Of a stretch of DNA of 64,000 bases, positions 3,096 through 37,358 are shown piece after piece. The stretch is from Chloroflexota bacterium (lineage in GTDB: Bacteria; Chloroflexota; UBA11872): positions 2,641,310 to 2,705,309 of the forward strand of contig OY764080.1 of assembly GCA_963667925.1 (NCBI GenBank). The letters run 5' to 3'. The notes below the pieces were generated by a model. That model had not been told where the DNA came from. It made no database searches and was given only the letters and a program-made list of their open reading frames with translations. The position numbers and the translations under genes were made by a program. The stretch's first letter is position 1, and each line of letters begins with the position of its first letter.

Positions 3096-3116
3096 CTCAA
3101 GCTCTCTGGCCAAAAC

Positions 3117-3149: not shown

Positions 3150-3217
3150 ATGTTTGGCCGCTCAAACCGGCGACAACGCTCAGCGTTCGCCAGCAGCCAT
3201 CCGCGCCGCCACGCCCA

Positions 3218-3526: not shown

Positions 3527-3595
3527 CGCCGCAGGACCTGGGTCGCCGGCAGAATTCCGACGATTACGCCGTTCGGAATCCGGTTCAGCCCCAAT

Positions 3596-4966
3596 TTATG
3601 CGGGCAACCAGCGGTAGCTGTACAGGCTTGAGCTCTGAAGGTTGAATCGAAGCAGGACCTCACCGTCCGGCTGCGGCGGAACAACCGAACCGCCGCGCCA
3701 GTGCACCTCCACATCCACTGCGTTAAATGACGAGAACCGGCAATCCGCCGCTGAGAACCCTTCAACTCCCTCCCCCGTCGCCGACAGCACCTCAACCGAA
3801 GCCGCTCCGGTTTCAGCCCGGAGGTTCAACGTCAATCGTCGCGGCTCTCGCGCATCCAGGGGACCGCACACCATCGAACCGCCGAACATCTCGCCTTCCA
3901 TCGACACGAAACCGTCCCGCCGAATGGTCGCGATCCCAAACGCCCGCCGATGAAGATCCGCTGCCCCGTGGTGAGTGCACGCACCGGCATACCAGAATCG
4001 CAACCGGTCTCCCACCGGCTCCGGTGGTGTGCTCGCCAGCATGATCCAGTGCGAGTCCCACGCGCCCTCGCCGCCGAGCGGCATCACCGGCTTGCGGCCA
4101 GCCACCCGCCGCCAGCGCCTCGCGTCGTCGCTCCACGCCAACTGCACATCCAGCGTTTCCTCGGCCGTGTGATAGACCTCGATGAACCCCAGGTATCCCG
4201 GCCCATAGGCCGCCGGAAACATGCTGTAGAACTCCGTGTCGGCCGGATCGTCGTCATCCGGCCACAGCATCCGCCCGCGATGCGTCCACGCCAGCAGATC
4301 CGGGCTTTCCCATAGGTCCATGTCCCGCTTGAGTCCCTGCACTCCAGCCTGACGCTGCACGCTCAGGTACCGGTGTCGAGTCAGCAACATGCAGGTCTGC
4401 CGCCGCGGGTCCCACGCAAGCTGCATGCGGTCGCCCTGCGCGGGCAGCGTCGGCTCGACATCCAGCTTCCAATCCAAACCGTCGTCGGACACTCCCCGGT
4501 ACATTCCGCGACCGGTTGGCGTGCCGTCAGGATCGCGATGCACCTGGTAGGTCATCGCTTGATAGCGCGGTCCCGGAACGCGATCCAGCAGCGTCAACAG
4601 CGTCTGGGTCGATCCGTGCTCCCAGGGCAGGACAACGTTAGTGCGCGTGCCGTCCGGCAGGGCGTACACGTCAAGTTCCGGCTTTTCCCACGCCACGCCG
4701 TCCGACGAAATGGCCACGCATACGCCGTGAAACCTTGAACCAGCCGGGTGCGCCACATAGAGCATCTTGTAGTGATCGGCCTGCTCGTCATGAACAACTG
4801 AAATCCAGCCGCCTTGCCAGGCCGACTCCCAGGGCCGGTCGCCGACCAGAACAGGCTCAGACTCGCGGCGCAGCGTATTGACCCGGCGCCCAATCCCTTC
4901 CCGCGCCAGCACCTCGGCATCGTCGAAGAACAGATGAAGGTCATCATCAAGAAGATCGGGAATCAT
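3596..4966 (-). CDS. Glycoside-hydrolase-like beta-propeller protein (GH32/43/130-superfamily-like), paralog 1
   Basis: 456 aa. Asp/Trp-rich blades (WESAWQGGWISVV, SSDGVAWEKP, an RDP motif). Paralogous to the divergent downstream gene; weak RBS before ATG 4966. Confidence 0.55.
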   Translation of the reverse strand: MIPDLLDDDLHLFFDDAEVLAREGIGRRVNTLRRESEPVLVGDRPWESAWQGGWISVVHDEQADHYKMLYVAHPAGSRFHGVCVAISSDGVAWEKPELDVYALPDGTRTNVVLPWEHGSTQTLLTLLDRVPGPRYQAMTYQVHRDPDGTPTGRGMYRGVSDDGLDWKLDVEPTLPAQGDRMQLAWDPRRQTCMLLTRHRYLSVQRQAGVQGLKRDMDLWESPDLLAWTHRGRMLWPDDDDPADTEFYSMFPAAYGPGYLGFIEVYHTAEETLDVQLAWSDDARRWRRVAGRKPVMPLGGEGAWDSHWIMLASTPPEPVGDRLRFWYAGACTHHGAADLHRRAFGIATIRRDGFVSMEGEMFGGSMVCGPLDAREPRRLTLNLRAETGAASVEVLSATGEGVEGFSAADCRFSSFNAVDVEVHWRGGSVVPPQPDGEVLLRFNLQSSSLYSYRWLPA

Positions 4967-4990
4967 GGGAGTCGCCTTTCCCGCAGGCCG

Positions 4991-6622
4991 CGAGTGCTTG
5001 GCCGCCGCATCCTACCCAGAACGCCCAAGTCGCTTCGCGGCGTCCGACGACTGGACTCACAGCGTGGTCCCAACTCTCTTCCGGTACCATGCGCGCCAAC
5101 ACAGAGCAAGGCAACGAAGCGAAGGCGTCACATCGATACATCAGCCGGACAGCGCGACGGTTTCGTTCTCCTCGACGGAATCGAATCCACCTACCACCTT
5201 TCGCACCGAGCTTGCGAAGCCACGAAGCACCCAAACAACCCTGTCCTGCCACTAGGCGACCTCCACGAGTGGGACGCCACCCAGGCCCGCCCCTGGTCCT
5301 CGCCGACCGTGATCTGGGACGACGAGGATCGAGTCTTCAAGGCCTGGTACTCCGGCTCCGATGCGGCACCGGAAAAGTGGACCGCCATGGGCTACGCCAC
5401 CAGCCAGGACGGGGTCACGTGGGAGAAACCGCACTTACACCTGTTTGACTGGCGGGGATCCAGCGCAAACAACATCGTTGCCCTTGGCTACGGCCCGGTC
5501 CTCAAGGACAACGCAGAGCCAGACCCGGCCAAGCGCTACAAGATGTTCAAGCGCGGTCCTCGCCTGCGCACGGACGACGCCATCACCGCGCCGGTACCCG
5601 ACTACAAGGGATCTCGGGCCAACTACTCGCCCGACGGCATCCACTGGACCGAAGGGCCGAAGATCGATATCCCCGAGTGGGAAGGCCGCAGCCCCGACTG
5701 CGGAAACCTGATTCGGGACGACCAGGATCCAGACCCATCACGCCGCTTCAAGCTGATCTGGCAGGCCCGGACCCCCTTGAGTCGCCCTGACAAACCCTGG
5801 GGCCGAGCCAAGCTTCTCTGCTACGGCCCGGATATGGTGAACATCCGCAACGCGGATGAAAACCCGCTGCTAGACCCGGATGACGGGTTTGAGTATGAGA
5901 ATCATCACGTCTTGTATGCCCCCTACGGCGGCGCCTGGGTGATGGCGTACGAATACGGCTGGTACGTGCCCAATGGATACGGCATCTACGGCTCCTATTG
6001 CGCGGACATCCGATTGGCCGTCAGCCGCGACGGCCTGCGGTTCGACCGACTTGATGTGCCGCAGCCGGTCATTCCTCGGGGCCGCAACGATGAGTGGGAT
6101 GGCGGCCTGCTGGTCATCGCCGACAAGCCCGCGATCAAGGACGGAACCGTCCACCTGTTCTACGGCGGCAACGGCGAGGAATGGACCAGTTGGCCAGGCG
6201 AGAACACGCCGGCCGAATACCCGTTCGCAAGCACGGGCCAGATTCGCCTATCGCGGCTGGGTGTCGCCTCCCTTCGAGAGGACGGCTTCACCTGCCTGGA
6301 AACTCCGGACCGCGAAGTCCCCGGCTATGCCATCACGCAGACCATTGATCGCAGCGACCCCACAACCCAACTGACCGTCAACGTGAGCGACGTCCGGCAG
6401 AACCGCAGTTGGGTCGAAGTCGAGGTCCTGGACGCAACGACCGAACAACCGTTCGAAGGCTTCGGCCGCGCGGACTGTCGTGATCTGTGCACAGACGGCT
6501 GGCGAGAGCCGGTCAGTTGGCGCGGAGGTGGAATCGGCGACATTCCGGCCAACCAGTTCAAACTCCGTTTCTGGCTTTACGGCGCCGCCCGGCTCTACGC
6601 CTATGGGTTCGACGCGGCGTGA
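4991..6622 (+). CDS. Glycoside-hydrolase-like beta-propeller protein, paralog 2 (5' end uncertain)
   Basis: The ORF is open from 4814. The conserved core starts at ~5230 (PVLPLGDLHEWD...WYSGSDAAP...TSQDGVTWEKP) and aligns with paralog 1. The only canonical in-frame start outside the divergent gene is GTG 4991, so the true start may be non-canonical. Confidence 0.5.
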   Translation, partial: RVLGRRILPRTPKSLRGVRRLDSQRGPNSLPVPCAPTQSKATKRRRHIDTSAGQRDGFVLLDGIESTYHLSHRACEATKHPNNPVLPLGDLHEWDATQARPWSSPTVIWDDEDRVFKAWYSGSDAAPEKWTAMGYATSQDGVTWEKPHLHLFDWRGSSANNIVALGYGPVLKDNAEPDPAKRYKMFKRGPRLRTDDAITAPVPDYKGSRANYSPDGIHWTEGPKIDIPEWEGRSPDCGNLIRDDQDPDPSRRFKLIWQARTPLSRPDKPWGRAKLLCYGPDMVNIRNADENPLLDPDDGFEYENHHVLYAPYGGAWVMAYEYGWYVPNGYGIYGSYCADIRLAVSRDGLRFDRLDVPQPVIPRGRNDEWDGGLLVIADKPAIKDGTVHLFYGGNGEEWTSWPGENTPAEYPFASTGQIRLSRLGVASLREDGFTCLETPDREVPGYAITQTIDRSDPTTQLTVNVSDVRQNRSWVEVEVLDATTEQPFEGFGRADCRDLCTDGWREPVSWRGGGIGDIPANQFKLRFWLYGAARLYAYGFDAA

Positions 6623-24837: not shown

Positions 24838-25122
24838 ATGACGGCCGACCTGTCCGCGCTCGACATCGTGCGACGATTGACGGCGATTGAGGCCACGCTG
24901 CCGACGTTCGCGACCAAGGCCGACATTCACTCGCTGCGAGCGGATATCCAGGTGATGCGGTCGGAGTGGAAGGCTGACCTTGGCGAAATGAAGGCCGACC
25001 TGCACGCGCGGGAGGCGCGGCTGATCAAGTGGATTGCGGGGCTGGTGGTGGCCGGGGCGGCCGCCGCGGCTGGGGTTGCGATTGCGGTCAACCAGATTGT
25101 CGGGCCTGGGGTTGGGGGCTGA
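24838..25122 (+). CDS. Small coiled-coil protein with C-terminal transmembrane anchor (XhlA/DUF1640-like)
   Basis: 94 aa. N-terminal heptad-rich coiled coil (ADIHSLRADIQVMRSEWKADLGEMKADLHAREARLIKW), then hydrophobic IAGLVVAGAAAAAGVAIAV. Confidence 0.55.
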   Translation: MTADLSALDIVRRLTAIEATLPTFATKADIHSLRADIQVMRSEWKADLGEMKADLHAREARLIKWIAGLVVAGAAAAAGVAIAVNQIVGPGVGG

Positions 25123-25311
25123 TGGGGGCATTCGCAGGAAGCGGCGCGAACGAACGCGGAAGGCCTCAGAATGATTCAGCGCGGCGGGTCATAGGGCAGC
25201 AGAGGATGTCGGCGGTACACTTGACCATGGTCAGGAGGGTCACGGCTAGCAGACCCGCGGGATTCGTCCCCCTGGCCACGTTCTTTTCTCAGCGCCAGCC
25301 CTGAGGTAGCC

Positions 25312-26913
25312 GTGGGTACGGAGAACGCGGGCCGCGACTTTCCGGGCGAATACCGCCTTGACGTTGAAGACTTCGGGCCAATCGCCAAGGCCAGCGTGGA
25401 CCTGCGGCCGCTGACGGTTTTCATTGGACCGAGCAACACGGGCAAGTCGTATCTGGCGATACTGGTATATGCGTTACATCAATGTTTTGGCCAAGGGAAA
25501 AAACATCCATACGGAGACCGACTGCTGAGTTTGATCTTGGATTCTTTCATTGATTCAGGATTCAACGAAGAAACGGACAATATTCTTGAATACTTTAGCG
25601 ATTGGCTGTTGTGTCGGGGTAATAGGGAGTCACAAAGCAACCCACAAGACGATACGAATCTCGAGCTCGACTTCCCGATGCAAGTGGACTCGCGAATCCG
25701 AACCGTGTTTGAGCAAGTGGACGACTTTAGCAATTATATTACGAGCAGGATTTCTGGGTACTTCGGTTTTGGGGCTGAAGAAATCGATCTGCTGATACGA
25801 CGATCGAAGTATGTGTCGGATGCCAGAGTCGAATTATCTATTCCTCGGCTGGCCGGCGACGGGATCGTTGGATATAGCATTAGAATAAACGAAGAAGGGG
25901 TTAAATTTTCGGGAAAAATTGGCGGCGCTGAACCAGTCGTCAACGAAATCGAACGATCTGCGGCTCTTCATGACGCGCCATTGAATCTGAGACATCTCCA
26001 ACGGTTGGCGCGACAGGATGTCGACGACGATGAAGACCTGGTGTTCTCGCTTACGCGGTTCATGGACGCTGCGTTCAGGGAGTTGACTAGACCGATAAAT
26101 CGCAATGCCTATTACTTACCGGCCGATCGTACCGGTGCTATGCACACCCATAAGGCCGTAGTTAGAGCCTTCATCCAAAGTGCCCCATTCAGCACGGCGA
26201 GCCTGACTGCCGATAGTCCTCTCTTCTCAGGAGTATTGGGGGACTTTCTGAGTGAGCTGGTCGGGTTGGATCCCATTCGAACTCGCGTTCGGACAAAGTT
26301 CCGGCGTGTCCCTGCACGACTCAGCGGCAAGTTGGCGACGGATCTGGAGCATGACGTCCTCAAGGGCGCCATACGGCTGGAAGACGCAGGGAGCGGTTAT
26401 CCGACCTTCGAATATCGTCCGGATGGCTGGGATCGGTCCCTGTCGTTGGTGCAGGCGTCTTCCATGGTCGCCGAACTGGCACCGGTGGTGCTCTACTTGC
26501 GGCACCTTGTGCGATCGGACGACGTTCTCATCATCGAAGAGCCGGAGTCGAATCTGCATCCGGCCATGCAGGTTGAGTTCACGCGACAGCTTGCGGGGCT
26601 GGTGCGGGCTGGGATTCGGGTGATTGTGACCACGCACAGCGAGTGGGTGCTGCAAGAGTTGGCCAACCTGGTGCGCGTGTCGAAGCTTCCCGAATCCGCG
26701 CGAGAGGGAATTGCCGGGGGTGACGTGGCGCTTGATGCGAGCCAGGTCGGGGCCTGGTTCTTCAAGCCGGACTCGAACGGCGAGGGTTCCACGGTAAGCG
26801 AGATCGGTCTGGATGAAGAGTCCGGCCTTTACCCGACCGACTTCGAAGAGGTGGCCCGGGCGATGCACAACGATTGGGCCGAGATTTTCAGCCGGCTTGG
26901 AGAGGCTGAGTGA
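25312..26913 (+). CDS. ABC-type/OLD-like AAA ATPase (AAA_15/AAA_21-type; PtuA/AriA/GajA-like architecture)
   Basis: GTG start. N-terminal LTVFIGPSNTGKS Walker A; degenerate signature SLSLVQASS; Walker B DVLIIEEPESNLHP; H-loop VTTHS. The central ~0.65 kb of the gene is low-GC. Confidence 0.8.
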   Translation: MGTENAGRDFPGEYRLDVEDFGPIAKASVDLRPLTVFIGPSNTGKSYLAILVYALHQCFGQGKKHPYGDRLLSLILDSFIDSGFNEETDNILEYFSDWLLCRGNRESQSNPQDDTNLELDFPMQVDSRIRTVFEQVDDFSNYITSRISGYFGFGAEEIDLLIRRSKYVSDARVELSIPRLAGDGIVGYSIRINEEGVKFSGKIGGAEPVVNEIERSAALHDAPLNLRHLQRLARQDVDDDEDLVFSLTRFMDAAFRELTRPINRNAYYLPADRTGAMHTHKAVVRAFIQSAPFSTASLTADSPLFSGVLGDFLSELVGLDPIRTRVRTKFRRVPARLSGKLATDLEHDVLKGAIRLEDAGSGYPTFEYRPDGWDRSLSLVQASSMVAELAPVVLYLRHLVRSDDVLIIEEPESNLHPAMQVEFTRQLAGLVRAGIRVIVTTHSEWVLQELANLVRVSKLPESAREGIAGGDVALDASQVGAWFFKPDSNGEGSTVSEIGLDEESGLYPTDFEEVARAMHNDWAEIFSRLGEAE

Positions 26914-27383
26914 GCGGACTCGTTCAACGGGTCCGGGCGAACCTGGACGGCAGGTGCATCGCCACGCGGATTCGCAAACAGGGCTGCAGCGTGTCCCTGG
27001 ATGGCGCACCGGCTCCCCGCGTGATCGTCGACTTTGACAAACTGGGATCGCCGCTCGGGCCGTCAGATCAGCGGTGCGACTACCTGTTCGTGGCGGACGC
27101 CGCCGATCGTGACGGGTGGGTGGCGCCGCTGGAGTTGAAGCGCGGCAGGTTTCACGCCGGTGAGTTCGTCCGGCAACTACAGGCAGGCGCCACGGCAGCG
27201 GAGAAGCTGGTGCCTCGGAGTGCAAAGGTCAGGTTTCGGCCAATTGCTGTTGTTGGTGGCGGCATGACGAAGGAAGAGTGGAACAAATCGCGGCAGAAGC
27301 GGAACGCGGTGCGTTTTCGTGGCAAATACGAGCTTCTGCGATCTTTGTCGTCCGGCCAGAAGCTGGCCGACAAGCTTTGGTGA
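26910..27383 (+). CDS. Small protein with putative minimal PD-(D/E)xK nuclease motif, translationally coupled to the upstream ATPase
   Basis: GTG start overlaps the ATPase stop (GTGA). 157 aa. Beta-strand Asp residues (RVIVDFD, CDYLFVAD) followed by PLELK (E-x-K). Basic C-terminal tail. Confidence 0.6.
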   Translation: MSGLVQRVRANLDGRCIATRIRKQGCSVSLDGAPAPRVIVDFDKLGSPLGPSDQRCDYLFVADAADRDGWVAPLELKRGRFHAGEFVRQLQAGATAAEKLVPRSAKVRFRPIAVVGGGMTKEEWNKSRQKRNAVRFRGKYELLRSLSSGQKLADKLW

Positions 27384-27520
27384 GCCGGCCGCACGTCGGA
27401 CGTCGAGGACTTGAACATACTGCCCGCGATCCAGAATCCCAGGCTGGGTGCAGTCTGGGCCGTCAGGCAATAGGCGGTCGACAGTCGAGTTCCAAGCGTC
27501 GAAAACCCCAGGTGCCCCGC

Positions 27521-27916
27521 CTACGTCGAGGTCTTTTCGTGCCACCAGCTCGCTAGGGCTAGATCGTAAGCGTGCTCCACTTGCTGCGCATGGTCGTTTT
27601 CAGCCGCGAGCGGCAAGACGATGTCCGCGTGATACGGGTTCCCGGGTCGCGGCGTGTGGCCGACCGCGCGACCATTGGAAGTCGCCACATCTCGCGACAC
27701 AACCGCCCAACCCTCGAATGGACCTGTGCGGTTCACACTGTCGTCCTCGGCTGATCGATGCACGACGCCCATAGCAGCTTCTTCGAGACGATCCACCGAG
27801 ATATATCGCGGATTGGGGGCGTGCATGAAAACATCGTGCGGTGTGTTGTTTCTTCTAGCCTTTCCTGCACGTCGACTCGAATACACACGGCGGCCCAGCG
27901 GCGACGAATGCGACAT
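27521..27916 (-). CDS. Hypothetical protein (131 aa), third gene of the minus-strand hypothetical operon
   Basis: Start lies 8 nt downstream of the stop of the 27925-28575 gene; composition is protein-like; contains an R-x5-H motif (RPGNPYH). The call is weak. Confidence 0.35.
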   Translation of the reverse strand: MSHSSPLGRRVYSSRRAGKARRNNTPHDVFMHAPNPRYISVDRLEEAAMGVVHRSAEDDSVNRTGPFEGWAVVSRDVATSNGRAVGHTPRPGNPYHADIVLPLAAENDHAQQVEHAYDLALASWWHEKTST

Positions 27917-27924
27917 ATAGCCAG

Positions 27925-28575
27925 TCAGCGCTGGATGGATGCCGCGCGCTGCAAATCGCGCAAGGCATCACGAATGAACCCATCCACCCTGTTTGGAGCT
28001 AGATCGTAATGGGCGCGTCGATGCACGCCATCAATCGTGAGCAGAATGAGGGCGGACCCGTCCGAGCCAAAGAGTAAGAGGAGTCCTTTTCGGTACCCGC
28101 CGCTGACGTTGACTGCGACTTCGCGATTGGACGTTGAGTAGACGTCCGCCCGTTCGTCCAAGTCAAAGTATCGCCATAGACGGTACGCATTTGTCAGCGC
28201 CGTCTTTGACGGCGGCTCGTAATTCTCGTCTTCGGCTTCGATTAGGAGGTCGTTGGCGAACTGTTCGTAGCCAATCGTTGGTGCCATTGGCTCCGACAAC
28301 AGCGCCAAGAACAAGGGATCAAGTGAGGTTTCTGAACGGCGACTACTGCTGTAACTATCGGCCAAGGCAGCCGCATGAAACTCGTACGCCAGCAACGGCG
28401 ACGGCTCCGTGTCCTTGTGAAAGCGATTACATCGGACCAAATCAGCGACACCGCCCATGCCGTCAACCGACAGGACACTGCCAGACGACGAGTCAGCCAC
28501 AGCCTTCGTGACGAGAGCAAGGGCATCGTCCAATAAGTCCGCGCGCGAAGCCTGTCGCAGCTTATCAGTCGCCAT
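27925..28575 (-). CDS. Hypothetical protein (217 aa)
   Basis: Start at MATDKLRQ; overlaps the upstream gene's stop by 11 nt (operonic). No recognisable domain. Confidence 0.5.
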   Translation of the reverse strand: MATDKLRQASRADLLDDALALVTKAVADSSSGSVLSVDGMGGVADLVRCNRFHKDTEPSPLLAYEFHAAALADSYSSSRRSETSLDPLFLALLSEPMAPTIGYEQFANDLLIEAEDENYEPPSKTALTNAYRLWRYFDLDERADVYSTSNREVAVNVSGGYRKGLLLLFGSDGSALILLTIDGVHRRAHYDLAPNRVDGFIRDALRDLQRAASIQR

Positions 28576-29041
28576 CGCCCACCTGCTCGATTTCAGCACG
28601 GCGCTCGGCCAGGACGTGCTTCGCGACGTTAAGATAGCTGTCGTAGGTGCTCTCCAATTGGCGAGACAGATGAAGAGCATCGGCAGGACCAATAGCGATT
28701 CGAGCTATCGGCTTAATATCGGTCCCGGCTGTACGCAACGCCTCCATCGTTTTTTCGTCTTGTTTGGCTGCTTCAAGCAGGACCGGTGGCGGCACGGCAG
28801 CCATGGTTAGAAACAGCATATGATGGTCAGTGTCGTACTGAACAAGGAACGCATTGGCGTAGGCTACGGGCAACTCGTCAGCGGGCTTCCAGTTGATCGG
28901 GAGTTCCACGGACCCGATCTCAATGTTGTCGGGTTCACTCACGGCTGGCAGGCCAAGGTTGGCACGAAACTGGTCAGGGCATGCCGAACGGCGGGCGACG
29001 AGACATGGAAAACCCAGCAAGCCATCGTGTCTCTCCCGCAC
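28565..29041 (-). CDS. Hypothetical protein (158 aa)
   Basis: First gene after an AT-rich putative promoter region; no recognisable domain. Confidence 0.5.
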   Translation of the reverse strand: MRERHDGLLGFPCLVARRSACPDQFRANLGLPAVSEPDNIEIGSVELPINWKPADELPVAYANAFLVQYDTDHHMLFLTMAAVPPPVLLEAAKQDEKTMEALRTAGTDIKPIARIAIGPADALHLSRQLESTYDSYLNVAKHVLAERRAEIEQVGDGD

Positions 29042-29099
29042 GACTGCTACGACGCGGCTCTTGACTATACCATGCCACTGCGCTAAAGTAACGTGTGTC

Positions 29100-29200
29100 T
29101 CGCCCTTGCCCTGCCAACCGATCTGGCTTCCTTACATTAACTAGTACGTTACGTCAAGTTATAATTCACTAGTAGGCTCGTAATGTCCCCGAACACCGAT
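29100..29200. promoter_or_regulatory. AT-rich island with ACTAGT-containing imperfect palindromes (candidate promoter/operator for the minus-strand hypothetical operon)
   Basis: ttacattaactagtacgttacgtcaagttataattcactagtaggctcgtaatg: ~35% GC inside a ~67% GC genome; taactagtacgtta is a near-palindrome. Confidence 0.45.
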
Positions 29201-29314
29201 CCAGCGCCTTTCCGGTCTGGACGGTCCCACTCGTAGACGGAGCGCGGGCAGTCCGGGTCGAGCGCGCGACCGGCGAGTTTCAGGTCGTCGTCGGCTTTGG
29301 CGAACCAGGCTTGC

Positions 29315-29659
29315 TCAGGCCGCGCGTCGGTCGTAGAGGACCTCCGAGTCTTCCAGCATTCGGCTGAGCATGGAGTTGGGGTTGGGGCGGTAGGCGGTGA
29401 ACGTCTCGTAAGAGCGGATCAGCAGGTCCACGGGCAGCAGGAAGCGTTCGGCGATGGCGCGGCGGATGGGGTTGCCGCGCCGGGGCGGCTCGACGCCGGG
29501 GCGAAGCACCACCATCAGGTCCAGGTCGCTGTTTTCGTCTTCTTCGCCGCGGGCGCAGCTGCCGAAGAGGATGACTTGCTCGGGCTCGAAGCGCTCGACG
29601 ATGAGTTGGGTGATGGCTTCGATGGTTTCCCGGTTGAGGGGGTCTTCGACGACGCGCAT
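29315..29659 (-). CDS. Minimal nucleotidyltransferase (MNT) domain protein, no adjacent HEPN partner
   Basis: Real start is ATG 29659 (MRVVEDPLNRE...). NTase motif LFGSCARGEEDENSDLDLMVV. The ORF-track N-terminal extension is a Pro/Arg-rich artefact. Lies 5 nt downstream of the R-M gene stop. Confidence 0.75.
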   Translation of the reverse strand: MRVVEDPLNRETIEAITQLIVERFEPEQVILFGSCARGEEDENSDLDLMVVLRPGVEPPRRGNPIRRAIAERFLLPVDLLIRSYETFTAYRPNPNSMLSRMLEDSEVLYDRRAA

Positions 29660-29664
29660 CGGGG

Positions 29665-32600
29665 CTAGACCGCCACCCGAGATTCGGTGTCGCCGGCTGC
29701 CAGGGCGTTCATGTAGGCGAGGATTAGGGCTTTGGTGCGGTAGTGGCCGAATTGGGCTTTGTCGTGGCGTTGGATGATGGGGAAGGTGGAGAGGATGTAG
29801 GCGGCGTCTTCGCGGTCGAGGCCGTAGAGGTGGAAGTAGAGGGCGTCGAGGCGGGCTCGGAGGTGGCGGCGTTGTTCGGGGTCCCAGGGGAAGGGTGGGC
29901 CGTGGTGGCCGAGGTCGCGGGCGAAGGGGGCCATGTCGTGGGCCGTGTAGGTGAGGCGGAGGACGTGGTGGCGGACGAGGTCGGCGGCGGTGCGGTCGCC
30001 GAAGGGGCGGTGGTAGGCGTCGGGCGCGATCATGGGCAGCTGTTCGAGGATGTACCACGTGAAGTTGTTCCCGGGAACTTTCTGCCGTGCGATGTAGTCG
30101 AAAGCGAAGGAATTCAGGTTGGCGACTACTTGGCAGACGTCCATAGGCGGATCCTCGGACTCATCGAGGAGTGGCAGTAGGTTCAAGGAGTGTCCAGCTC
30201 CTACCTGTGGCATGACGGCGGCGATCATCGTTCGCGCATTGGTAACGGATGTGACGTTCTTGAATGTGATCATCCACTTGTGTGGCGAGCCCCAATGCCG
30301 GTCGTCGAGCTGCACAAAGTAGCGAGGTATGGGCAGGCGATCGAAGTCCTGTTTCTCAAGCGCACGGATCGTCTCTTGCTGCCCGGGTCTGAATAGATTC
30401 TGTTGGTTCGTTGTCGTGTCTGCTGCACGATGATCAAATGCCTGCACCATCTTGCCTTCGTACAACGGCAGATACTGATCCTTGCCGCGCTTCCAGCGAT
30501 TCCCTTTGACCGGATAGAACCCCTCGTCTTGCAGTTGAACCGCGGTGCGGAAGAGATGCGAGTCATTGGCCATGTGGAACATGTTTGCGTAGCGGACGGG
30601 CCAGGCGCGGTGTTCCTCGCCGGTTGATCGGTCCACCAGGACGGGGTGCTGCTGGTAGATGCGACGGGTGATGTCGGCGTCGCGGCGGGTGCGGAAGATG
30701 GGGGCGGTGCCGGTGTTGGGGTTGACGCGGGCGAAGTCGTCGGGCGTGAGGGTGAAAGCGCGGTCTGGATCGTTGATGGTGTTGGTGTCGGGCAGGAAGA
30801 AGCCGCAGCGGGTCTCGGGGATCGTGCGTTGGGGGCCGCCGACGATGAGGGCGCAGAACTTGAAGCGGGAGTCGATGTCGGGGAAGAACGGCGGCAAATC
30901 GGTGCCCAGGCGACGGTTCTCGAAGTCGTAGATGCCGGCGACGCGGCCGGTGGTGGAGACGGACTGGAAGAAGCGGGCGGCGGTGCGGTCGGCGTAGATG
31001 CCGGAGGGGGTGAGCAGGCCGACGAGGCCGTTGGGCTTGACGAGGCGGAGGGAGCGTTCGACGAAGAGGGAGTAGAGGTTGATGTCGCCGCCGCCGAGCA
31101 GGGGGTAGTGGCCGGAGGCGCGAATGACCTGGCCGAGGCGGTCGGCGCGGGCCTTGGCCTGGTCGAAGGATTCGGCCAGCGGGTCGCCCTGCTCGCGCAG
31201 GCGCTTGATGCCCTGGCGGCGGGCGGCGGCGGTGGGGGCGCGGGCGAGGTCGGGGTCGCGGGTGGCGAACCATTCGACTTCCTGGAGCTTGATGCGGTCC
31301 CAGGGGGGATTGCCGATGACGGCGTCGAAGCCGCCTTCGGGGGTCTGGTTTTGCCAGTGGCGCCAGACGCCGGGGAAGGCGGCTTCCCAATGCAAGAAGG
31401 ATTCTTTTTTGGCAATAGATTTGGATTGGTTTAGGAGGGTGGTGAAGGCGGGGTCTGTTGACTCGGGCTTGCGTTGGTTCGGGGTTGGTTGCGCGGAGGA
31501 CCCCTCACCGATTTCCGCCGAAGACGGCGGAATCCCTCGGCTGGCTCGGGACAGGTTCTGCCTCTCCCCTTGGAGAGGGGAAGATCCGTGCGGCTCCGCA
31601 GGGTGTGAATCCGCAGGGGGGTGCTGGTGGGTGGGATTACGAGCGGAAGACGGGCGGGTCTGAGACGCCGCCCCTACGAAAGAGGGAGAGGACGGCGACT
31701 CGGACAGGGTTGCAGGTGAGGGTGGTTCGACACGGGCCTTCGAGGGACTGCGGCCCGGCTCACCACGAACGGTTGGGTGGCGGTGGGTCAGGAGGGTGAA
31801 TGCTTGGGTGGGGTCCGCGCCCAGGGTCTCGGCCACCGGCGCCTCGAATGTTGCGCGTTGGCGGACGCGCATGCCGGCGGTGTGCCAGCGGAGGCCGGCG
31901 AGGGTGTCGAGGAAGCCGCGGAGGTCGGCGGTGGCGGATTCGACGGCGTGGAAGAGGGTCTCGGACTGGTGGACTTCGGTGACGTCGGCGTCGGAGAGCT
32001 GTTCGATCTGACGCATGCCGTGGGCGGCGTTTTCGACGCCCTGCAGGGCGCTGGTGACGAACATGGGCACCTTGAGGCGCTGTAGCTCGGTTTTGGCGTC
32101 GGCGATGCGGAGGCCGAGGAGGGAGTCGCCGCAGCGGAGGTGGTGGTCCAGGAAGGAGAGGGGCGCGCCGACGGTGAAGCTGTGGAGCCAGAGGGAGACC
32201 TTGGCGAGTTCGACGGTGAGGGGGTTCTTGTCGACGCCGTAGATGCAGCGCTTGAGGACGAGGCGGCGGATGATGGCCTGGTCGGTGAGTTGGGCCTGGT
32301 TGACGGTCCAGCCGGACTCGGCGGCGCGGTGCAGGATGGCGTCGCGGATGGCGGCGACGCGGTCCAGCAGGGGTGAGTGGTAGGGGTCGTCCGCGTCCAG
32401 CCAGTCGGCGAATGCGGGAGCGACTTCGACCAGGTCGGCGATGTAGTCGGTGAGGAAGTCGACGGCGCTGACGAGGAAGTGGCCGCTGCCCATGGCGGGG
32501 TCGAGCACCTTGAGATCGAGGACGGCCTGGGCGGGGTCCAGGCTGGCGAGCTCGGCGCGGCGTTCAGATTTGGGGCGGCGGTCGCCGCGGAGTTCGCCGG

Positions 32601-33990
32601 CCCTGGCCTCGAAGGCGTCCAGGCGTTCCTCGATGAGCGGCTTGAGGGTTTGGTCGACGATGAGGTCCACGAGGTCCTGCGGGGTGTAGAAGCTGCCGCT
32701 GTCCTTGCGGGCGTAGGGGTTGGGGCGGATCTCAATCTGACCTTCGGCATCCAGCCGCGGTTCTTGCTCCAGCAAGCGTTCGTAGAGGGAGCCGAGTTGC
32801 TGGACGGACATGTCGCGGTAGTTGACGTAGCTGGGCTGGCCGTCGGCCTGGGTGTGGCTGAGGTCGTAGACGACGTCGGCGATTACGTCATCGGGGAGGC
32901 GGACCTGGTTGAGCAGCGGGGCGGCGTGTTGGGCGAAGAGACCGCCGTTGTAGGGCGGGAGGCCGATGGAGCGGTCGCCGACGTCGATCAGGCGAAACAG
33001 GGTGGTGAGGTGGTCGTAGTAGCTGGAGGCGGCGGTGGAGAAGGTGTCGTTGCGGTCTTTGCGCCGGGCCACGTCGTCGCGGACGCGCTTGCGGAGGCCG
33101 TAGTCGTCGTAGGCGGCGTCGTTGACGGGCAGCAGGCCGCGGTCCTCGGCGTAGAGGACGAAGAGCAGGCGGTAGAGAAAGATGAGGGCGGCTTCGCGGA
33201 TTGCCGGCATGGGCTGGTCGGACTTGTCGGCCAGAGCCTGGAGGAGGCGGGGAAAGACGCGCTGGAAGACGACGCCGGCGAGGCTCTGGGCGACGCGCTG
33301 TTCGTAGCGGCGGCCCGCCGCCAATGCTGTTTCAAGAAACGCGGCAACTGCTCCTGGACGTCGTACGAAGGCGGAGCGGCGGAAGAGCAGGTGGAAGGTG
33401 CGGAGGGCGTCCTGGTCGTCGGCTTCCAGGAGGGCCTGGAGGTCGGCTTCGTAGTAGGCGGTGGCGCGGGGGCGGGTTTTCTGGTCGTAGAGCCGCCAGA
33501 CGGCGCCGTTGGTGAGGATGCCCCAGCGGAGGTCGCCATCGGTGACGGTCTCGGCCTCGCGGAGGTAGCGGAGGATCTGGGCGTGGGGCGAGGAGGCCTG
33601 GAGTCCCTTGCCGGAGCCGCGGGTGTCGAGGGGACGGCCGAAGCGCTTGAGCTCGGCGACGGCGAGGGCCTCAAGGAATGGGCTGGCCGTGGACCCGGTG
33701 GCGCGGGTCTTGGCCTGGGCGTCGGGGAAGAGCAGCAGGTCGGGGATGTTTTCGCCGCCGCTGGAGGTTTGCTGGGGGAGGTCGTGGGTCCAGCCGAGGA
33801 GTTGGAGCAGGGGGCGGATGAGGTCCTGCTCGGTCTGGGTTTCGTTGGGGTTGTGGTCGGCGGGGAAGTCCCGGAAGAGGCGGCGGGCTTCGTCACGGAA
33901 GGCGGTGAAGGCGGGGCGCTGGGATTGCCGCTCGGGGGTCTGGCGGATGCCGTCGGTGAGGAAGTATTCGGTGAAGAGGTGGCCGGGCAT
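29665..33990 (-). CDS. Type IIG restriction-modification enzyme: N-terminal PD-(D/E)xK endonuclease domain fused to gamma-class N6-adenine DNA methyltransferase (Eco57I/PglX-like), with in-frame low-complexity insertion
   Basis: 1441 aa. N-terminal ENIPDLLLFPD...LAVAELKRF (PD...ExK). GSFYTPQDLVDLIV (FYTP motif). VIGNPPWDRIKLQE (NPPW motif IV). No helicase or Walker motifs, so not Type I or ISP. A ~120-aa Pro/Ser-rich insert is encoded by repeat DNA at 31440-31800. Confidence 0.8.
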   Translation of the reverse strand: MPGHLFTEYFLTDGIRQTPERQSQRPAFTAFRDEARRLFRDFPADHNPNETQTEQDLIRPLLQLLGWTHDLPQQTSSGGENIPDLLLFPDAQAKTRATGSTASPFLEALAVAELKRFGRPLDTRGSGKGLQASSPHAQILRYLREAETVTDGDLRWGILTNGAVWRLYDQKTRPRATAYYEADLQALLEADDQDALRTFHLLFRRSAFVRRPGAVAAFLETALAAGRRYEQRVAQSLAGVVFQRVFPRLLQALADKSDQPMPAIREAALIFLYRLLFVLYAEDRGLLPVNDAAYDDYGLRKRVRDDVARRKDRNDTFSTAASSYYDHLTTLFRLIDVGDRSIGLPPYNGGLFAQHAAPLLNQVRLPDDVIADVVYDLSHTQADGQPSYVNYRDMSVQQLGSLYERLLEQEPRLDAEGQIEIRPNPYARKDSGSFYTPQDLVDLIVDQTLKPLIEERLDAFEARAGELRGDRRPKSERRAELASLDPAQAVLDLKVLDPAMGSGHFLVSAVDFLTDYIADLVEVAPAFADWLDADDPYHSPLLDRVAAIRDAILHRAAESGWTVNQAQLTDQAIIRRLVLKRCIYGVDKNPLTVELAKVSLWLHSFTVGAPLSFLDHHLRCGDSLLGLRIADAKTELQRLKVPMFVTSALQGVENAAHGMRQIEQLSDADVTEVHQSETLFHAVESATADLRGFLDTLAGLRWHTAGMRVRQRATFEAPVAETLGADPTQAFTLLTHRHPTVRGEPGRSPSKARVEPPSPATLSESPSSPSFVGAASQTRPSSARNPTHQHPPADSHPAEPHGSSPLQGERQNLSRASRGIPPSSAEIGEGSSAQPTPNQRKPESTDPAFTTLLNQSKSIAKKESFLHWEAAFPGVWRHWQNQTPEGGFDAVIGNPPWDRIKLQEVEWFATRDPDLARAPTAAARRQGIKRLREQGDPLAESFDQAKARADRLGQVIRASGHYPLLGGGDINLYSLFVERSLRLVKPNGLVGLLTPSGIYADRTAARFFQSVSTTGRVAGIYDFENRRLGTDLPPFFPDIDSRFKFCALIVGGPQRTIPETRCGFFLPDTNTINDPDRAFTLTPDDFARVNPNTGTAPIFRTRRDADITRRIYQQHPVLVDRSTGEEHRAWPVRYANMFHMANDSHLFRTAVQLQDEGFYPVKGNRWKRGKDQYLPLYEGKMVQAFDHRAADTTTNQQNLFRPGQQETIRALEKQDFDRLPIPRYFVQLDDRHWGSPHKWMITFKNVTSVTNARTMIAAVMPQVGAGHSLNLLPLLDESEDPPMDVCQVVANLNSFAFDYIARQKVPGNNFTWYILEQLPMIAPDAYHRPFGDRTAADLVRHHVLRLTYTAHDMAPFARDLGHHGPPFPWDPEQRRHLRARLDALYFHLYGLDREDAAYILSTFPIIQRHDKAQFGHYRTKALILAYMNALAAGDTESRVAV
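31440..31800. repeat. Composite GC-rich hairpin-repeat insertion (elements B + A) inside the R-M coding sequence, reading frame preserved
   Basis: Contains ggaagacgggcgggtctgagacgccgcccctacg (element B, also at 35315-35346) and ggttcgacacgggcc...ggctcaccacgaacgg (element A, also at 34075-34123), plus further small hairpins (ccgccgaagacggcgg). Confidence 0.7.
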
Positions 33991-33994
33991 TGGG

Positions 33995-34125
33995 GATGGG
34001 TGGTTTTGGGGTTGGGGGAGTATCGCGTGTTTGGGTTGGGTGGGGGTCGGGTGGGTTGGGTGGTGGGGGTTCGTGGTTCGACACGGGCCTGCGAAAGACT
34101 TCGGGGCGGCTCACCACGAACGGTA
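33995..34125. repeat. G-quadruplex-prone G-rich tract plus element A copy immediately upstream of the R-M gene start
   Basis: gggtggttttggggttggggg...gggttgggtgggggtcgggtgggttgggtggtggggg, then gtggttcgacacgggcctgcgaaagacttcggggcggctcaccacgaacgg. Confidence 0.65.
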
Positions 34126-34449
34126 TGCGATCCGACTTAGCGGCCAAGAACGAAAAAGGCACAAAGGTGACCTGATCGCGAGCCGTTCTGGTCAGGCTTC
34201 ACGCAGCGACCAGAGCACGGGCGGAAGTCGAGATTCCTCGGGGGACCTCGGCATGACAGAAGGGAGGCCTAGAGGCCGCCGAAGGATTGGACGCGGGATT
34301 TGAGGGTTAGGTAGAGGGTTTGGAGGGTGGGGGTGGGGACGCCGGATTGGTGGGCGCGGCGGAGGACGGCGCCGGCGGTGTAGTCGAGTTCGACGCGGCG
34401 CTGGTGGGCGAAGTCGACCTAGAGAGCGGTGGTGGCGGTGTGTTTGGCG

Positions 34450-34782
34450 TCATTCGGCGTACATCTCAGCGATGATGCGGCGCAGTTGGGATGCATTGTC
34501 GGCGGAGAGGCGATCGACGCGACGCCGAAGGCGCTGCTTGCTGATGGTGCGAATCTGGTCAACGGCGACCTCGGCGTCCTGTCCCGCGCAGCGCACCTGG
34601 AGGCGACCACGCCAGCGTGGGTGCAGGCTGGTGGTGAGCGGGCAGATGACTACGGTGTCGAGGAATCGGTTCATGGCATCGCGGCTGACGACCACGACCG
34701 GTCGGACCTTGCGAATCTCGCTACCGACGGTTGGGTTGAGATCGGCGATGTAGATGCCGTAGCGGCGGGGGAAGTCCGCCAT
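34450..34782 (-). CDS. mazF: MazF/PemK-family type II toxin endoribonuclease
   Basis: Start at MADFPRRYGIYIADLNPTVGSEIRKVRPVVVVS...VVICPLTT; overlaps the mazE stop. Confidence 0.8.
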   Translation of the reverse strand: MADFPRRYGIYIADLNPTVGSEIRKVRPVVVVSRDAMNRFLDTVVICPLTTSLHPRWRGRLQVRCAGQDAEVAVDQIRTISKQRLRRRVDRLSADNASQLRRIIAEMYAE

Positions 34783-35036
34783 TACTCCAGGCCGTCGGAC
34801 ATGGCGACGTCGAAATCGCTCCAATCCTCCGATTCGGCGGCCATGGCACGGGAGGTTTCCTCCCAGGACAGACGGTGCGCCTCTTTGCCGCGCAAGGCGA
34901 TGCCTTGTTCGAACTCCTCCAATATCAGCCGATCTCCCCAGCCGTACTTGTCCAACAGCTCCTTGGGGAGCCGGATGCCCCTGGAGTTGCCGATGGCGAT
35001 CAGCTTGACCTCTCTGGTGCGAGGCGACTGACTCAT
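34782..35036 (-). CDS. mazE: MazE/AbrB-fold antitoxin
   Basis: 84 aa. SpoVT/AbrB motif LIAIGNSRGIRLPKELL; acidic C-terminus. Confidence 0.8.
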   Translation of the reverse strand: MSQSPRTREVKLIAIGNSRGIRLPKELLDKYGWGDRLILEEFEQGIALRGKEAHRLSWEETSRAMAAESEDWSDFDVAMSDGLE

Positions 35037-35056
35037 TTCAAGCTCCTCGGCGTGCG

Positions 35057-35073
35057 CGCCCGTGGTGTAATTA
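35057..35073. promoter_or_regulatory. Palindromic operator candidate GTAATTA-TAG-TAATTAC upstream of mazE
   Basis: Perfect 7-bp arms in an AT-rich patch 21 bp upstream of the mazE start; consistent with MazE/MazEF autoregulation sites. Confidence 0.5.
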
Positions 35074-35199
35074 TAGTAATTACTACGACGTATCCACGTC
35101 TATGCCATCCTGGCTTCGCCTCGCTGGAAACCCTAACCGGGCCAGATTTTCCTTGATGGCGGCGTCCAGCCGGCGCGCTGCGGCTTGTTGGCGGCGCCA

Positions 35200-35400
35200 T
35201 TGGGTGGTGAGGCGGGTCCGGATGTGGGGGGCATGGCGCGTTTGGGTTGGCTGGGGGCGGTTGGAAACCGGGCCGTACGTGAGGGCGGTGGGAATGGCGG
35301 GGGCAGCACGACCGGAAGACGGGCGGGTCTCAGACCCGCCCCTACGTGAGACGGGAGCAGGGTTTGGGCGTTGACCGGGTGGGGGGGGCGTGACAGTATC
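35200..35400. repeat. G-rich tract plus element B copy upstream of ffs
   Basis: ...gggcggtgggaatggcgggggcagcacgaccggaagacgggcgggtctcagacccgcccctacgtgagacgggagcagggtttggg...gtgggggggg. The core hairpin gggcgggtct-c-agacccgccc is perfect. Confidence 0.65.
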
Positions 35401-35406
35401 GAAGTG

Positions 35407-35677
35407 AGGCCGTGCTAGGTGGGGAGCTAGCGGTGCCCTTGATCCGCAATCCGCTATAGCGGGCTGAATCCCCGCCCGAGGCCCGTCCGCAATGTGTCTG
35501 CCGCCGACGCTCGGTATTGAACGCCGGGCCTCGTGCGACGAAGGCCTTCCAACCCCGTCAGGTCCGAGAGGAAGCAGCGGTACGAAGCCCCCTTCGGGCG
35601 CCGCGAGTCCACCTGGCCGGAGCCGTAGCCCGACGGTAAGGCGTTGTTGGGCGGTTCGACGGCGGGTGCGCGGCCTC
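35407..35677 (+). ncRNA. ffs: Signal recognition particle RNA, long (Bacillus-type, with Alu domain) form
   Basis: 5' gaggccgtgctaggtggggagctagcggtgcccttgatccgcaatccgctatagcgggctgaatcccc closely parallels B. subtilis scRNA. Domain IV GTCAGGTCCGAGAGGAAGCAGC is at 35558-35578. The 3' gcgcggcctc pairs with the 5' end. Length ~271 nt. Ends approximate to +/-5 nt. Confidence 0.8.
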
Positions 35678-35686
35678 TATCTCTAT

Positions 35687-35704
35687 CATGACGCTGCCGT
35701 CATG
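35687..35704 (+). terminator. Hairpin catgacg-ctgc-cgtcatg between ffs and dnaX (possible ffs 3' processing or terminator stem)
   Basis: Perfect 7-bp stem directly after the SRP RNA; followed by GGGAGG RBS and GTG of dnaX. Confidence 0.45.
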
Positions 35705-35717
35705 CCGGGAGGATCCC

Positions 35718-37358
35718 GTGGCCGCGTCGCGTCCGCCGTCGTTTCAAGCTCTGTATAACCGCTACCGACCGCAGCGGTTTGACGCGCTGGTTGGCCAGGA
35801 GCACGTGGTGCGGACGCTGCAGAACGCGCTGGTGCATAACCGGCTGAGTCACGCGTACCTGTTTTCGGGCGAACGAGGCACGGGCAAGACGACGGCGGCG
35901 CGGTTGCTGGCGAAGGCGGTGAATTGCCTGGAAGGCATCCAGGCTGAGACTTGCGGCAGTTGCGATCACTGCCAGGCGGTTGCCAACGGCTCTTTTCTCG
36001 ACCTGATCGAGATGGACGCGGCCTCGCACCGGGGCATTGATGACATTCGCGAGATCCGGGAGCTGACGCAGTTTGCGCCGGGGGCGGGGCGTTACCGGGT
36101 GTACATCATCGACGAGGTCCATCAGCTCTCGGCGCCGGCGAAGGATGCGTTGCTGAAGACGCTGGAGGAGCCACCGCCGCAGACGCTGTTTGTGCTGGCG
36201 ACGACGGAGCCGCACCGGGTGCCGGCGACGATCCGGTCGCGGACGCAGCACCTGACGTTTCGTCGCATCGGCGTGCTGGAACTGACGGCGCAATTGCGGG
36301 AAATCGCCGAGACCGAGGGCGCCCAGATTGAGGAGGCCGCGTTGCACACGCTGGCTCGAAATGCGGGCGGCAGCGCCAGGGACGCCGTGAGCCTGCTGGA
36401 TCAAGCGCTGGCGTATAGCGATAACGCTGCTACATCTGAGGCCGTGAATTCGATGCTGGGGCTGACGGGGCGCGATGCGGTGATTCAACTGCTGGGGCAC
36501 CTGATGGACGGGGACGCGGCGGCCGGACTGCAGGCGATCGGTCAAGCCATCGAGGACGGGACCAGCCCGAATACGCTGCGGCAACAGATCATTGACATCT
36601 TGCGGGACATCCTGATTTTGAAGACCAGTCCGGAGACGACCGCCGTCGGGCACCTGACAGAGGATGAGGCGTTTGAGCTGTCGCGACGCACTGAGCGGTC
36701 GAGCCTGCGTGACATCGTGCGCACGCTGGAGGTGTTCGCGGAGCCGGACCCGCCGTCACGGACCGGCGTGGACGCGACGCTGGAACTGGAATTGGCGTTT
36801 GCGCGGGCGGTGCTGGCCATTACCGAGACTCTGGAGTCTCCGCCGACCGCGGCAGCGGCGCAGGGAACGCAGCCACCAGTCAGAGCGGCTGCGACAGCGA
36901 GTCAACCCGCCGCCGCGCCGGCCCCGGCGACCAAAGAGGCGGCTCGACCGCCCGAGCCGAAGCCGGTCAGCGTGGCAGCCGGCGAGATCTCCGCGGCCAC
37001 GATTGCGGCATGCAAGGACGAATGGGTAGCGGTGATCCGACAGGAGTCGCGCGAGATTGCGCCGTACGTTGGGGAAGCGGAAGTGCTCGACTATTCGGAC
37101 GGCACCGTGACCCTGGGATACCGAAGCCGCTTCCTGTTCGAACGCGTTCAGAAGCCCGATGCCCTGCGGCAGGTCGCACGGGCGCTGTCGCAGGTGCTGG
37201 GCAGTCCGGTTCAGATTCAGAACGAGCAGCGCGGCACAATGGCGCCAACCGCGCGCCCGACGACCAGACCGTCGACCGACGACGATCCAGTGGTACGCGT
37301 GGCGATGCGGGAGTACGGCGCCACACTCGTTTCCGACAACTCCGCAAAGGGAGGTTGA
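35718..37358 (+). CDS. dnaX: DNA polymerase III subunit gamma/tau
   Basis: GTG 35718 after GGGAGG. FQALYNRYRPQRFDALVGQEHV...GERGTGKTT (Walker A). The ORF-track ATG 35688 lies inside the ffs hairpin. Confidence 0.85.
   Translation: MAASRPPSFQALYNRYRPQRFDALVGQEHVVRTLQNALVHNRLSHAYLFSGERGTGKTTAARLLAKAVNCLEGIQAETCGSCDHCQAVANGSFLDLIEMDAASHRGIDDIREIRELTQFAPGAGRYRVYIIDEVHQLSAPAKDALLKTLEEPPPQTLFVLATTEPHRVPATIRSRTQHLTFRRIGVLELTAQLREIAETEGAQIEEAALHTLARNAGGSARDAVSLLDQALAYSDNAATSEAVNSMLGLTGRDAVIQLLGHLMDGDAAAGLQAIGQAIEDGTSPNTLRQQIIDILRDILILKTSPETTAVGHLTEDEAFELSRRTERSSLRDIVRTLEVFAEPDPPSRTGVDATLELELAFARAVLAITETLESPPTAAAAQGTQPPVRAAATASQPAAAPAPATKEAARPPEPKPVSVAAGEISAATIAACKDEWVAVIRQESREIAPYVGEAEVLDYSDGTVTLGYRSRFLFERVQKPDALRQVARALSQVLGSPVQIQNEQRGTMAPTARPTTRPSTDDDPVVRVAMREYGATLVSDNSAKGG

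Follow-up and report, generated by a model that had tools for sequence, protein, structure and literature searches.

Can a gene for a restriction-modification (R-M) enzyme read straight through a block of small intergenic repeats and still encode a working protein? The question is raised by a 64,000-nt stretch of a Chloroflexota genome (contig OY764080.1, positions 2,641,310 to 2,705,309; hereafter the window, whose own numbering is used for all positions). Here, a Type IIG-like R-M gene of 1441 aa (29665..33990, minus strand), recognized by its Pfam matches and homologs, contains an array of ~340 nt derived from repeats (31447..31797, minus strand, aa ~732-848). An earlier note on this DNA had claimed that the reading frame passes through repeat units that are also found between genes nearby. 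This is borne out: the frame is stop-free throughout, and two of the units, elements A and B, match intergenic copies. The explanation that we favor, with a probability of roughly 80%, is that an array of the repetitive extragenic palindromic (REP) type was inserted in frame into a permissive loop of the gene and is read through, with the enzyme likely functional.

A repeat array inside an R-M gene

In the sense of the gene, the array consists of element A, element B, spacer X and element C. The earlier note had taken the insert to be made of A and B; both are present, but together they account for only about one-third of it, and element C and the 52-nt spacer had been missed. From anchor to anchor, the protein segment is 145 aa long in the window and 45-52 aa in homologs without the insert, and the extra segment comes to ~100-114 aa, depending on the anchors chosen. 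A Pro/Ser/Ala-rich segment of ~120 aa had been expected; the composition agrees (Pro 18%, Ser 18%, Ala 10%) and the length is slightly less. Candidate array-derived peptides are TVRGEPGR and SSAEIGEGSSAQPTPNQR.

The GC content at the first, second and third codon positions is flat in the insert (67.5/68.4/66.7), in contrast to the 300 codons upstream (73/43/92) and to the short loop (71/50/93) of the syntenic ortholog at locus L121, considered below. The same flat profile is found in five independent arrays, that of the window and those of four other genes, with flanks at ~72/42/90. Because GC by codon position is flat, unlike that of the flanks, the array DNA is of non-coding origin and is read through by the gene.

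The ortholog in L121 serves as the empty site. The two loci share the gene order recR-ybaB-dnaX-MazF-R-M, and L121 is 94% identical to the window from 38870 down to 31802, which is the edge of the insert. Between 31802 and 31416 the two do not align; 386 nt in the window face 86 nt in L121, and a loop of ~114 residues in the window faces one of 14. The insert appears to be derived and the short loop ancestral.

The same contrast is seen across the family. A search with the R-M protein gave 5047 homologs. When loop length is measured from a TLGADP anchor to a FLHWE anchor, the segment is 40-59 aa in 83 of the 120 best homologs and 70-440 aa in the other 37. Rather than an equivalent linker free of repeat DNA in unrelated taxa, what is found in most homologs is a short loop, and the other 37 carry different arrays. 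The array modules are TVRGEPGRSPSxARVEP (A), VGAASxTRPSS (B), SSPLQGERQIRASSAEIGEGSS (C), SPLPVGEGQGEG, SSPVGVPLVGT and VRGEPGGRTRRPVSNH. Arrays of close relatives differ by whole elements or by higher-order duplications; the longest one fetched is 1233 nt (L123), and up to 411 aa are encoded in a relative. Since no other position collects such inserts in 83 aligned homologs (one 22-aa case excepted), and since this loop contains repeats of other types in the distant homologs P0056, P0072 and P0093, it would seem to be a permissive site that has been hit repeatedly. Several of the related metagenome-assembled genomes (MAGs) have names typical of sponge-metagenome bins. In one related genome, fragments of an R-M homolog (L044, 937-4649; aa 1-211 and aa 1336-1441 only) lie beside two intact paralogs and look like a decayed copy.

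From the N- to the C-terminus, the predicted order of the protein is a PD..ExK motif of the nuclease type, a putative helical spacer, a methyltransferase of the gamma-class N6-adenine type and a target recognition domain (TRD). It is 100% identical to one database protein. The Pfam families Eco57I (72 bits vs a cutoff of 25) and N6_Mtase (29 bits, above cutoff) are matched; HSDR_N (21.1 vs 25.1), MmeI_hel (21.7 vs 27) and MmeI_Mtase remain below cutoff. In 42 aligned homologs, including the window protein, P83-D84, E113-x-K115, DPAMGSGHF (497-505) and NPPW (894-897) are invariant. Methyltransferase motif I (VLDPAMGSGHFLV, aa 495-507; 32470..32508, minus strand), the IYGVDKN strand and motif III (GDSL, aa 621-624) are upstream of the array, and motif IV (NPPW; 31300..31311, minus strand) is downstream. 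The two Pfam matches, motifs I and IV and the fold are those of the gamma-class N6-adenine methyltransferase of a Type IIG enzyme. The best Foldseek matches of the structure model are PglX/BrxX, CamA and M.TaqI, and a sequence search of the PDB with the protein gave no match to any solved structure. The array is inside the methyltransferase domain, between GDSL and NPPW; the earlier placement, past the methyltransferase core and ahead of the C-terminal region, needs correction. In an AlphaFold2 model that covers aa 440-1180, aa 740-841 have a predicted local distance difference test (pLDDT) score <50 and are without secondary structure; helices at aa 727-735 and 847-863 flank the array loop, and the NPPW strand comes next. 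The array loop is predicted to be disordered.

Selection on the gene can be estimated by comparing the window with two other array-bearing genes. The ratio of nonsynonymous to synonymous substitution rates (dN/dS) is 0.12-0.13 in aa 850-1050, just downstream of the array, 0.23-0.25 in the N half and ~0.5 in the aligned parts of the array itself. All 37 homologs with an expanded loop are full-length open reading frames (ORFs). In the 1233-nt array of L123, the frame of the gene contains 0 stops and the other five contain 5, 15, 3, 9 and 3. This array, the longest of four longer ones fetched as DNA, is open only in the gene frame; the other three have one extra open frame, and in the window insert two of six frames are open. 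The enzyme is most probably still functional, and we infer that the array is translated and that activity is retained. That the insertion might inactivate the enzyme, an option left by the earlier note, agrees poorly with the invariant catalytic motifs and with the low dN/dS after the array.

Repeat families in and around the gene

Element B can be placed in a known superfamily. The copy in the gene (31637..31686, plus strand; repeat match, tag and stem-loop) is read by the gene as SFVGAASQTRPSSAR. Its reverse complement has the form GTAG-GGGCGGCGTC-TCA-GACCCGCCC-GTC and can be drawn as a stem-loop, GTAG-GGGCGGGTC-loop-GACCCGCCC-GTC, in which GTAG is unpaired. The reverse complement of 31652-31678 is GTAGGGGCGGCGTCTCAGACCCGCCC, and the GTAG tag, which elements A and C do not show, is kept in 6/7 aligned copies from other loci. 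The intergenic copy (35299..35346, plus strand; repeat match and folding) is a perfect palindrome just upstream of the gene for the signal recognition particle (SRP) RNA; the palindrome itself (35306-35346) lies ~65 nt before that gene. Identity between 31630-31673 and 35299-35342 is 80%, or 92% over 40 nt, and the B core pattern has 3 matches in the window, a number reached in 0/100 shuffles. As for the palindrome expected of a REP, the intergenic copy has a 9-bp stem and the gene copy a bulged stem, and inverted repeat I17 is 15/15 complementary. The description of the units as hairpin repeats holds for the intergenic copy of B (folding z-score -2.7); the copies of A and B within the gene are degenerate and, folded as DNA, do not differ significantly from shuffles (-0.6 to +0.6). 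Members of the GTAG REP superfamily have a stem-loop with an unpaired GTAG tag, are linked to REP-associated tyrosine transposases (RAYTs) and have been reported from Chloroflexi (PMC3733652). By these features, element B appears to be a GTAG-tagged REP.

B occurs twice in the 64-kb window. In L068, a locus of a related Chloroflexota MAG, a stretch of 1.2 kb contains at least 6 copies, and B accounts for 26 pile-up hits across the ~0.9 Mb of fetched loci. In L068, copies of B flank a RAYT-like gene that matches NCBIfam REP_Tyr_transpos with E = 1.2e-19. This gene (4400-5510) is interrupted by two further B-type REPs and a TGA at 4844-4846, as if a REPtron had been invaded by the REPs that belong to it. 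When its halves were scanned separately there was no Pfam hit, and only the joined sequence scored.

The core of element A recurs in many phyla. The copy in the gene (31708..31777, plus strand; repeat match, pile-up and folding) has the core GGTTCGACACGGGCC...GGCTCACCACGAACGG and is read as TVRGEPGRSPSKARVEP; the intergenic copy (34058..34124, plus strand) is just upstream of the R-M gene start. The structure is an outer stem, CCGTTCGTGGT/ACCACGAACGG, around a variable inner hairpin. The 9-bp outer stem is intact in the intergenic copy, and its left arm is degenerated in the intragenic one. Identity between 31707-31773 and 34058-34124 is 81% over 67 nt and 88% over the 52-nt core. Both exact flank words of the element are found only in these two places in the window; two or more matches to the right-hand word (GGCTCACCACGAACGG) occur in 0/100 shuffles and two or more to the left-hand word (GGTTCGACACGGGCC) in 8/100. 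The core pattern is present in >118 stretches of species-representative genomes, mostly from Chloroflexota or Dehalococcoidia and also from Methylococcaceae, Nitrospira, Xanthomonadales and Tectomicrobia. Across these distant phyla (loci L002-L118, e.g. L006, L016, L020, L075 and L115) the outer stem is kept, and the inner hairpin differs by lineage, with tandem forms in some. There is no Rfam family for element A, and a literature search found no paper with the motif. A screen of 129 copies in other genomes for in-frame location, based on long ORFs that span the element, was uninformative since GC-rich DNA gives long spurious ORFs; the only plausible case is L027, where an ordinary protein-like ORF of 561 aa (2916-4598, minus strand), without a Pfam hit, contains toward the C-terminus a peptide, TQPVRGEPGRRLRLPESNH, that derives from element A. 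This may mean that an unrelated gene also reads the element in frame.

Element C (31482..31584, plus strand; repeat matches and pile-up) contains two hairpins, TTCCGCCGAAGACGGCGGAA and CCTCTCC-CCTT-GGAGAGG, and is read as SSPLQGERQNLSRASRGIPPSSAEIGEGSS. An extra segment of 24 nt lies inside the copy in the window, which matches L092 at 88% over 103 nt and L122 at 97% over 90 nt. Between C and B is spacer X (31585..31636, plus strand), 52 nt of G-rich sequence with few matches elsewhere: in the pile-up over fetched loci it has 1-6 hits vs 14-60 for the named elements (14-20 for C). A similar spacer is part of an intergenic B-X-C block in L121 (11545-11789), which is absent at the orthologous site of the window (~24405). 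The two genomes are ~94% identical, and the block was gained or lost recently. The block in L121 is flanked by two copies of a small element, CGTCATCCCGGCG...CCGGGACCCAG. Outside R-M genes, the repeat units recur as composites in fixed order, and B-A composites are found at six loci. Within the window, the families are confined to 23.8-24.4 kb, the R-M insert, 34.05-34.13 kb and 35.31-35.35 kb. An Rfam search of 31000-36000 gave the SRP RNA and one sub-threshold match to whalefall-1, with no RNA family for A, B or C; the whalefall-1 match is inside element C (31530-31578, minus strand; 19.9 bits vs a gathering score of 37, E = 0.11) and is probably due to chance.

Recombination at the array and competing explanations

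The array site is also a place where the relationship of the two orthologs changes. Along the gene, identity to L121 starts at 97-100% (to ~32130), slips to 85-98% (to 31831) and drops to 56-78% past the array; beyond the insert it is 74.5% overall, compared with 94% up to 31802. Synonymous divergence (dS) from L121 climbs from 0.17 in the N half to 1.12 in aa 850-1050. These shifts in identity and dS place an approximate recombination junction at 31802..31890. The R-M family is a mosaic by segment, with at least two allele groups for aa 850-1050. The junction coincides with the array site. Because the partner, L121, has no array, a causal part of the repeats would be hypothetical, and the earlier suggestion of a recombinogenic hotspot is only partly supported. 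The related proposal that the array shuffles TRDs finds no support in the breakpoints: a TRD-like hypervariable cassette (aa 1191-1300; 30091..30420, minus strand) is exchanged independently of the array, at boundaries of its own ~1 kb away. Homologs that agree at 75-97% over most other segments share 24-72% identity in this cassette, and the region 30123-30425 has no DNA match to L121 or L122. Nor does the locus resemble a phase-variable R-M gene of the kind that on/off switching would call for; 31300-31900 is free of tandem repeats, a look at the insert revealed neither promoter-like nor terminator-like sites, no recombinase gene was noted among the scanned neighbors, and all variant arrays keep the frame.

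In the explanation that we favor, small non-coding palindromic repeats (B as a GTAG-tagged REP, A as a longer hairpin and C as a two-hairpin element) would have been copied into a short permissive loop, which is part of a helical subdomain that separates methyltransferase motifs III and IV. With a net length divisible by three and no stop in frame, the ribosome would read through and add a Pro/Ser-rich segment of ~110 aa, predicted to be disordered and looped out of the fold. In the surrounding Chloroflexota clade, the array would gain, lose and duplicate whole elements, with survival only of variants in which the frame is open, and this loop is also a junction where recombination has joined N-terminal to C-terminal halves within the gene family. 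Presumably, either a RAYT-type transposase mobilized the repeats or they moved when repeat arrays recombined with one another. This agrees with the reading of the earlier note in which a REP- or MITE-like element (MITE, miniature inverted-repeat transposable element) was inserted without breaking the frame and was tolerated, given that the insert is missing from L121, its GC profile is flat, its units are intergenic in relatives and B is of the GTAG-REP type. The MITE part of that description does not fit, as the array begins in one family (A) and ends in another (C), and the junctions are without duplication.

Several observations weigh against this explanation. Alignment to the empty site reveals neither a target-site duplication nor terminal inverted repeats at the ends of the array. 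No RAYT gene is seen in the 64-kb window, in which A and B occur only twice each and C once, and the RAYT-like gene in L068, besides being interrupted, scores 70.6 bits vs a cutoff of 80 and, for Pfam Y1_Tnp, 22.8 vs 23. The structure model is only moderate (mean pLDDT 66). The protein database contains called ORFs only, and frame-broken variants may be under-sampled. Finally, copies of A in the arrays always have one orientation and frame, though five of the six frames of A are open, a pattern that duplication within the gene family would explain as well as repeated insertion. Because of this uniformity, the arrays point to duplication, deletion and recombination after a few founding events more than to many independent insertions.

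The other explanations differ in what they make of the array. It could be a recombination hub, with homology between arrays promoting exchange between R-M paralogs or alleles and shuffling the catalytic/TRD half relative to the nuclease half. The sharp junction between the window and L121 and the mosaic nature of the family suit this idea, as do P0033 and P0034, which join an array to a right flank typical of insert-less genes, and the presence of two paralogs in several genomes. We nevertheless regard it as unlikely, for L121 and other divergent M2-allele genes (P0040 and P0044) have no array, the TRD-like cassette has its own breakpoints ~1 kb from the array, and a junction at a domain-boundary loop is expected with or without repeats. 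Similarly unlikely is that the array is an evolvability hinge, hypervariable and prone to recombination in mid-methyltransferase domain, that rapidly re-pairs the nuclease/N-lobe with the catalytic/TRD halves, or else a variable disordered loop that is itself selected (e.g. for escape from anti-restriction proteins that target enzymes of this class); if either were true, a selfish repeat would have been domesticated within a defense gene. It is quite improbable that the gene is inactivated or decaying and that its frame is open by chance in stop-poor, GC-rich DNA. Openness alone is weak evidence when two of the six insert frames are open in the window, paralogs in the same genomes could relax constraint, dN/dS is raised within the insert, and decayed R-M fragments do exist in the genome of L044. 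Such decay is hard to reconcile with the low dN/dS right after the array and the invariance of all motifs, with 37 expanded loops that each belong to a full-length ORF, and with an array of 1233 nt that is open in the gene frame only (one other frame is also open in the other three).

Two further possibilities would remove the need for an insertion of repeats or for its translation into the mature enzyme, and we consider both extremely improbable. The segment could be an ancient, evolved low-complexity linker, with intergenic look-alikes that are derived or coincidental; peptide modules do recur in the same order and frame in many homologs. However, the insert lacks a codon-position GC signature, the segment is absent from the syntenic ortholog and from most of the family, the element A core is found in many phyla outside R-M genes, and copies of B flank a RAYT-like gene. 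Alternatively, the insert could be removed before the protein matures, as an intein or intron, or could be a chance-open spacer between two genes. In favor of this, motifs I-III are on one side of it and motif IV on the other, and hairpins can form in its RNA. These readings were rejected: the insert has no Pfam domain and no Rfam intron family, it contains no Cys and has no His-Asn at its C-terminal end, and when it is folded whole as RNA its z-score of -1.3 is not significant relative to shuffles. As for a split gene, insert-less homologs are single-chain, both halves form one Rossmann fold, the frame is kept across arrays of very different length, and the insert yielded no promoter-like or terminator-like sites.

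Gene neighborhood and known systems

On the upstream side of the R-M gene, a MazF/PemK toxin gene and a small upstream partner (34450-34824 and 34786-35037, both minus strand) lie between it and the SRP RNA, and the pair is also found in L121. The SRP RNA is of the large bacterial type (35410-35673, plus strand, 148 bits) and is directly upstream of dnaX (35688-37358, plus strand). On the other side, the ~4.7 kb downstream of the R-M gene (24849-29535) is absent from L121 and partly shared with L122; it includes an AAA_15/AAA_21 ATPase gene (25312-26913), a gene for a 157-aa partner and an NTP_transf_2 gene (29315-29668). Because this segment is missing from L121, the R-M gene appears to be part of a variable, defense-type island bounded by REP-like sites. 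Neighbors of R-M homologs in relatives (L123, 782-1720; L124, 8011-9558 and 2240-2990; L122, 9356-10064) are likewise mobile or defense genes, of the types IS110 transposase, group II intron-type reverse transcriptase and NTP_transf_2/HEPN pairs.

The locus offers a natural example of an enzyme loop that has absorbed a large amount of non-coding selfish DNA (~110 aa here and >400 aa in a relative) in a gene under purifying selection. For annotation, it implies that many of the low-complexity 'linkers' seen in proteins from MAGs may have arisen as translated REP arrays, for which flat GC across codon positions would be a simple diagnostic. For protein engineering, it shows where, between motifs III and IV, a large, structurally uncharacterized Type IIG family is permissive to insertions. 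If the coincidence with the recombination junction were causal, REP arrays would be tied to the modular evolution of defense genes.

The host protein resembles the MmeI-type Type IIG/IIL single-chain enzymes and PglX of bacteriophage exclusion (BREX) systems. They share a gamma-class methyltransferase and a C-terminal TRD in one chain, with a nuclease motif and a helical spacer that are putative in the window protein, the motifs DPAMGSGHF and NPPW, and a TRD that is modular and swappable. Unlike them, the window protein has a ~160-aa helical subdomain between motifs III and IV, the site of the array, and even with the array left out its ~1340 aa far exceed the length of MmeI.

As for the array, the bacterial interspersed mosaic elements (BIMEs) of Escherichia coli are extragenic clusters of REPs and other short motifs, with one REP family in alternating orientation. 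Here too, REP units and other short motifs are combined in recurring orders (C-X-B and B-A composites between genes), but the window array is intragenic and draws on several families.

Closer in function are the Rickettsia palindromic elements (RPEs), selfish palindromes that are translated in frame at fold-compatible positions (Ogata et al. 2000, as summarized in PMC10969869 and PMC3733652). Like an RPE, the window array consists of selfish palindromic repeats in frame within a protein gene and read as extra peptide. It also has the functional hallmarks: the insert is absent in L121, the frame is open, and dN/dS in the flanks is 0.12-0.25. However, an RPE is one unit of ~100-150 bp, and its host is an obligate intracellular alphaproteobacterium, whereas this is a mosaic, lineage-variable array in Chloroflexota. 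The array works like an RPE; the two are likened by function only, and we claim no sequence relationship.

The nearest precedent is provided by intragenic REPs with GTAG or CGTC tags, which occur in frame as single units, dimers and clusters, with the clusters encoding 43-82 aa (Di Nocera et al. 2013, BMC Genomics 14:522, PMC3733652). These are short GC-rich GTAG stem-loops, mostly intergenic and sometimes in frame inside genes, and element B fits this description. Several differences remain: the window array encodes ~110 aa (and that of a relative up to 411 aa), mixes at least three repeat families and is hosted by an R-M gene, whereas the published work stresses replication and repair genes; moreover, one loop has here been hit or remodeled repeatedly across a clade. 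In-frame intragenic REPs and RPEs have already been described, and the window array joins them. Among them it stands out for its size, its mosaic make-up, its variability among lineages, its host in a defense enzyme and its coincidence with a recombination junction.

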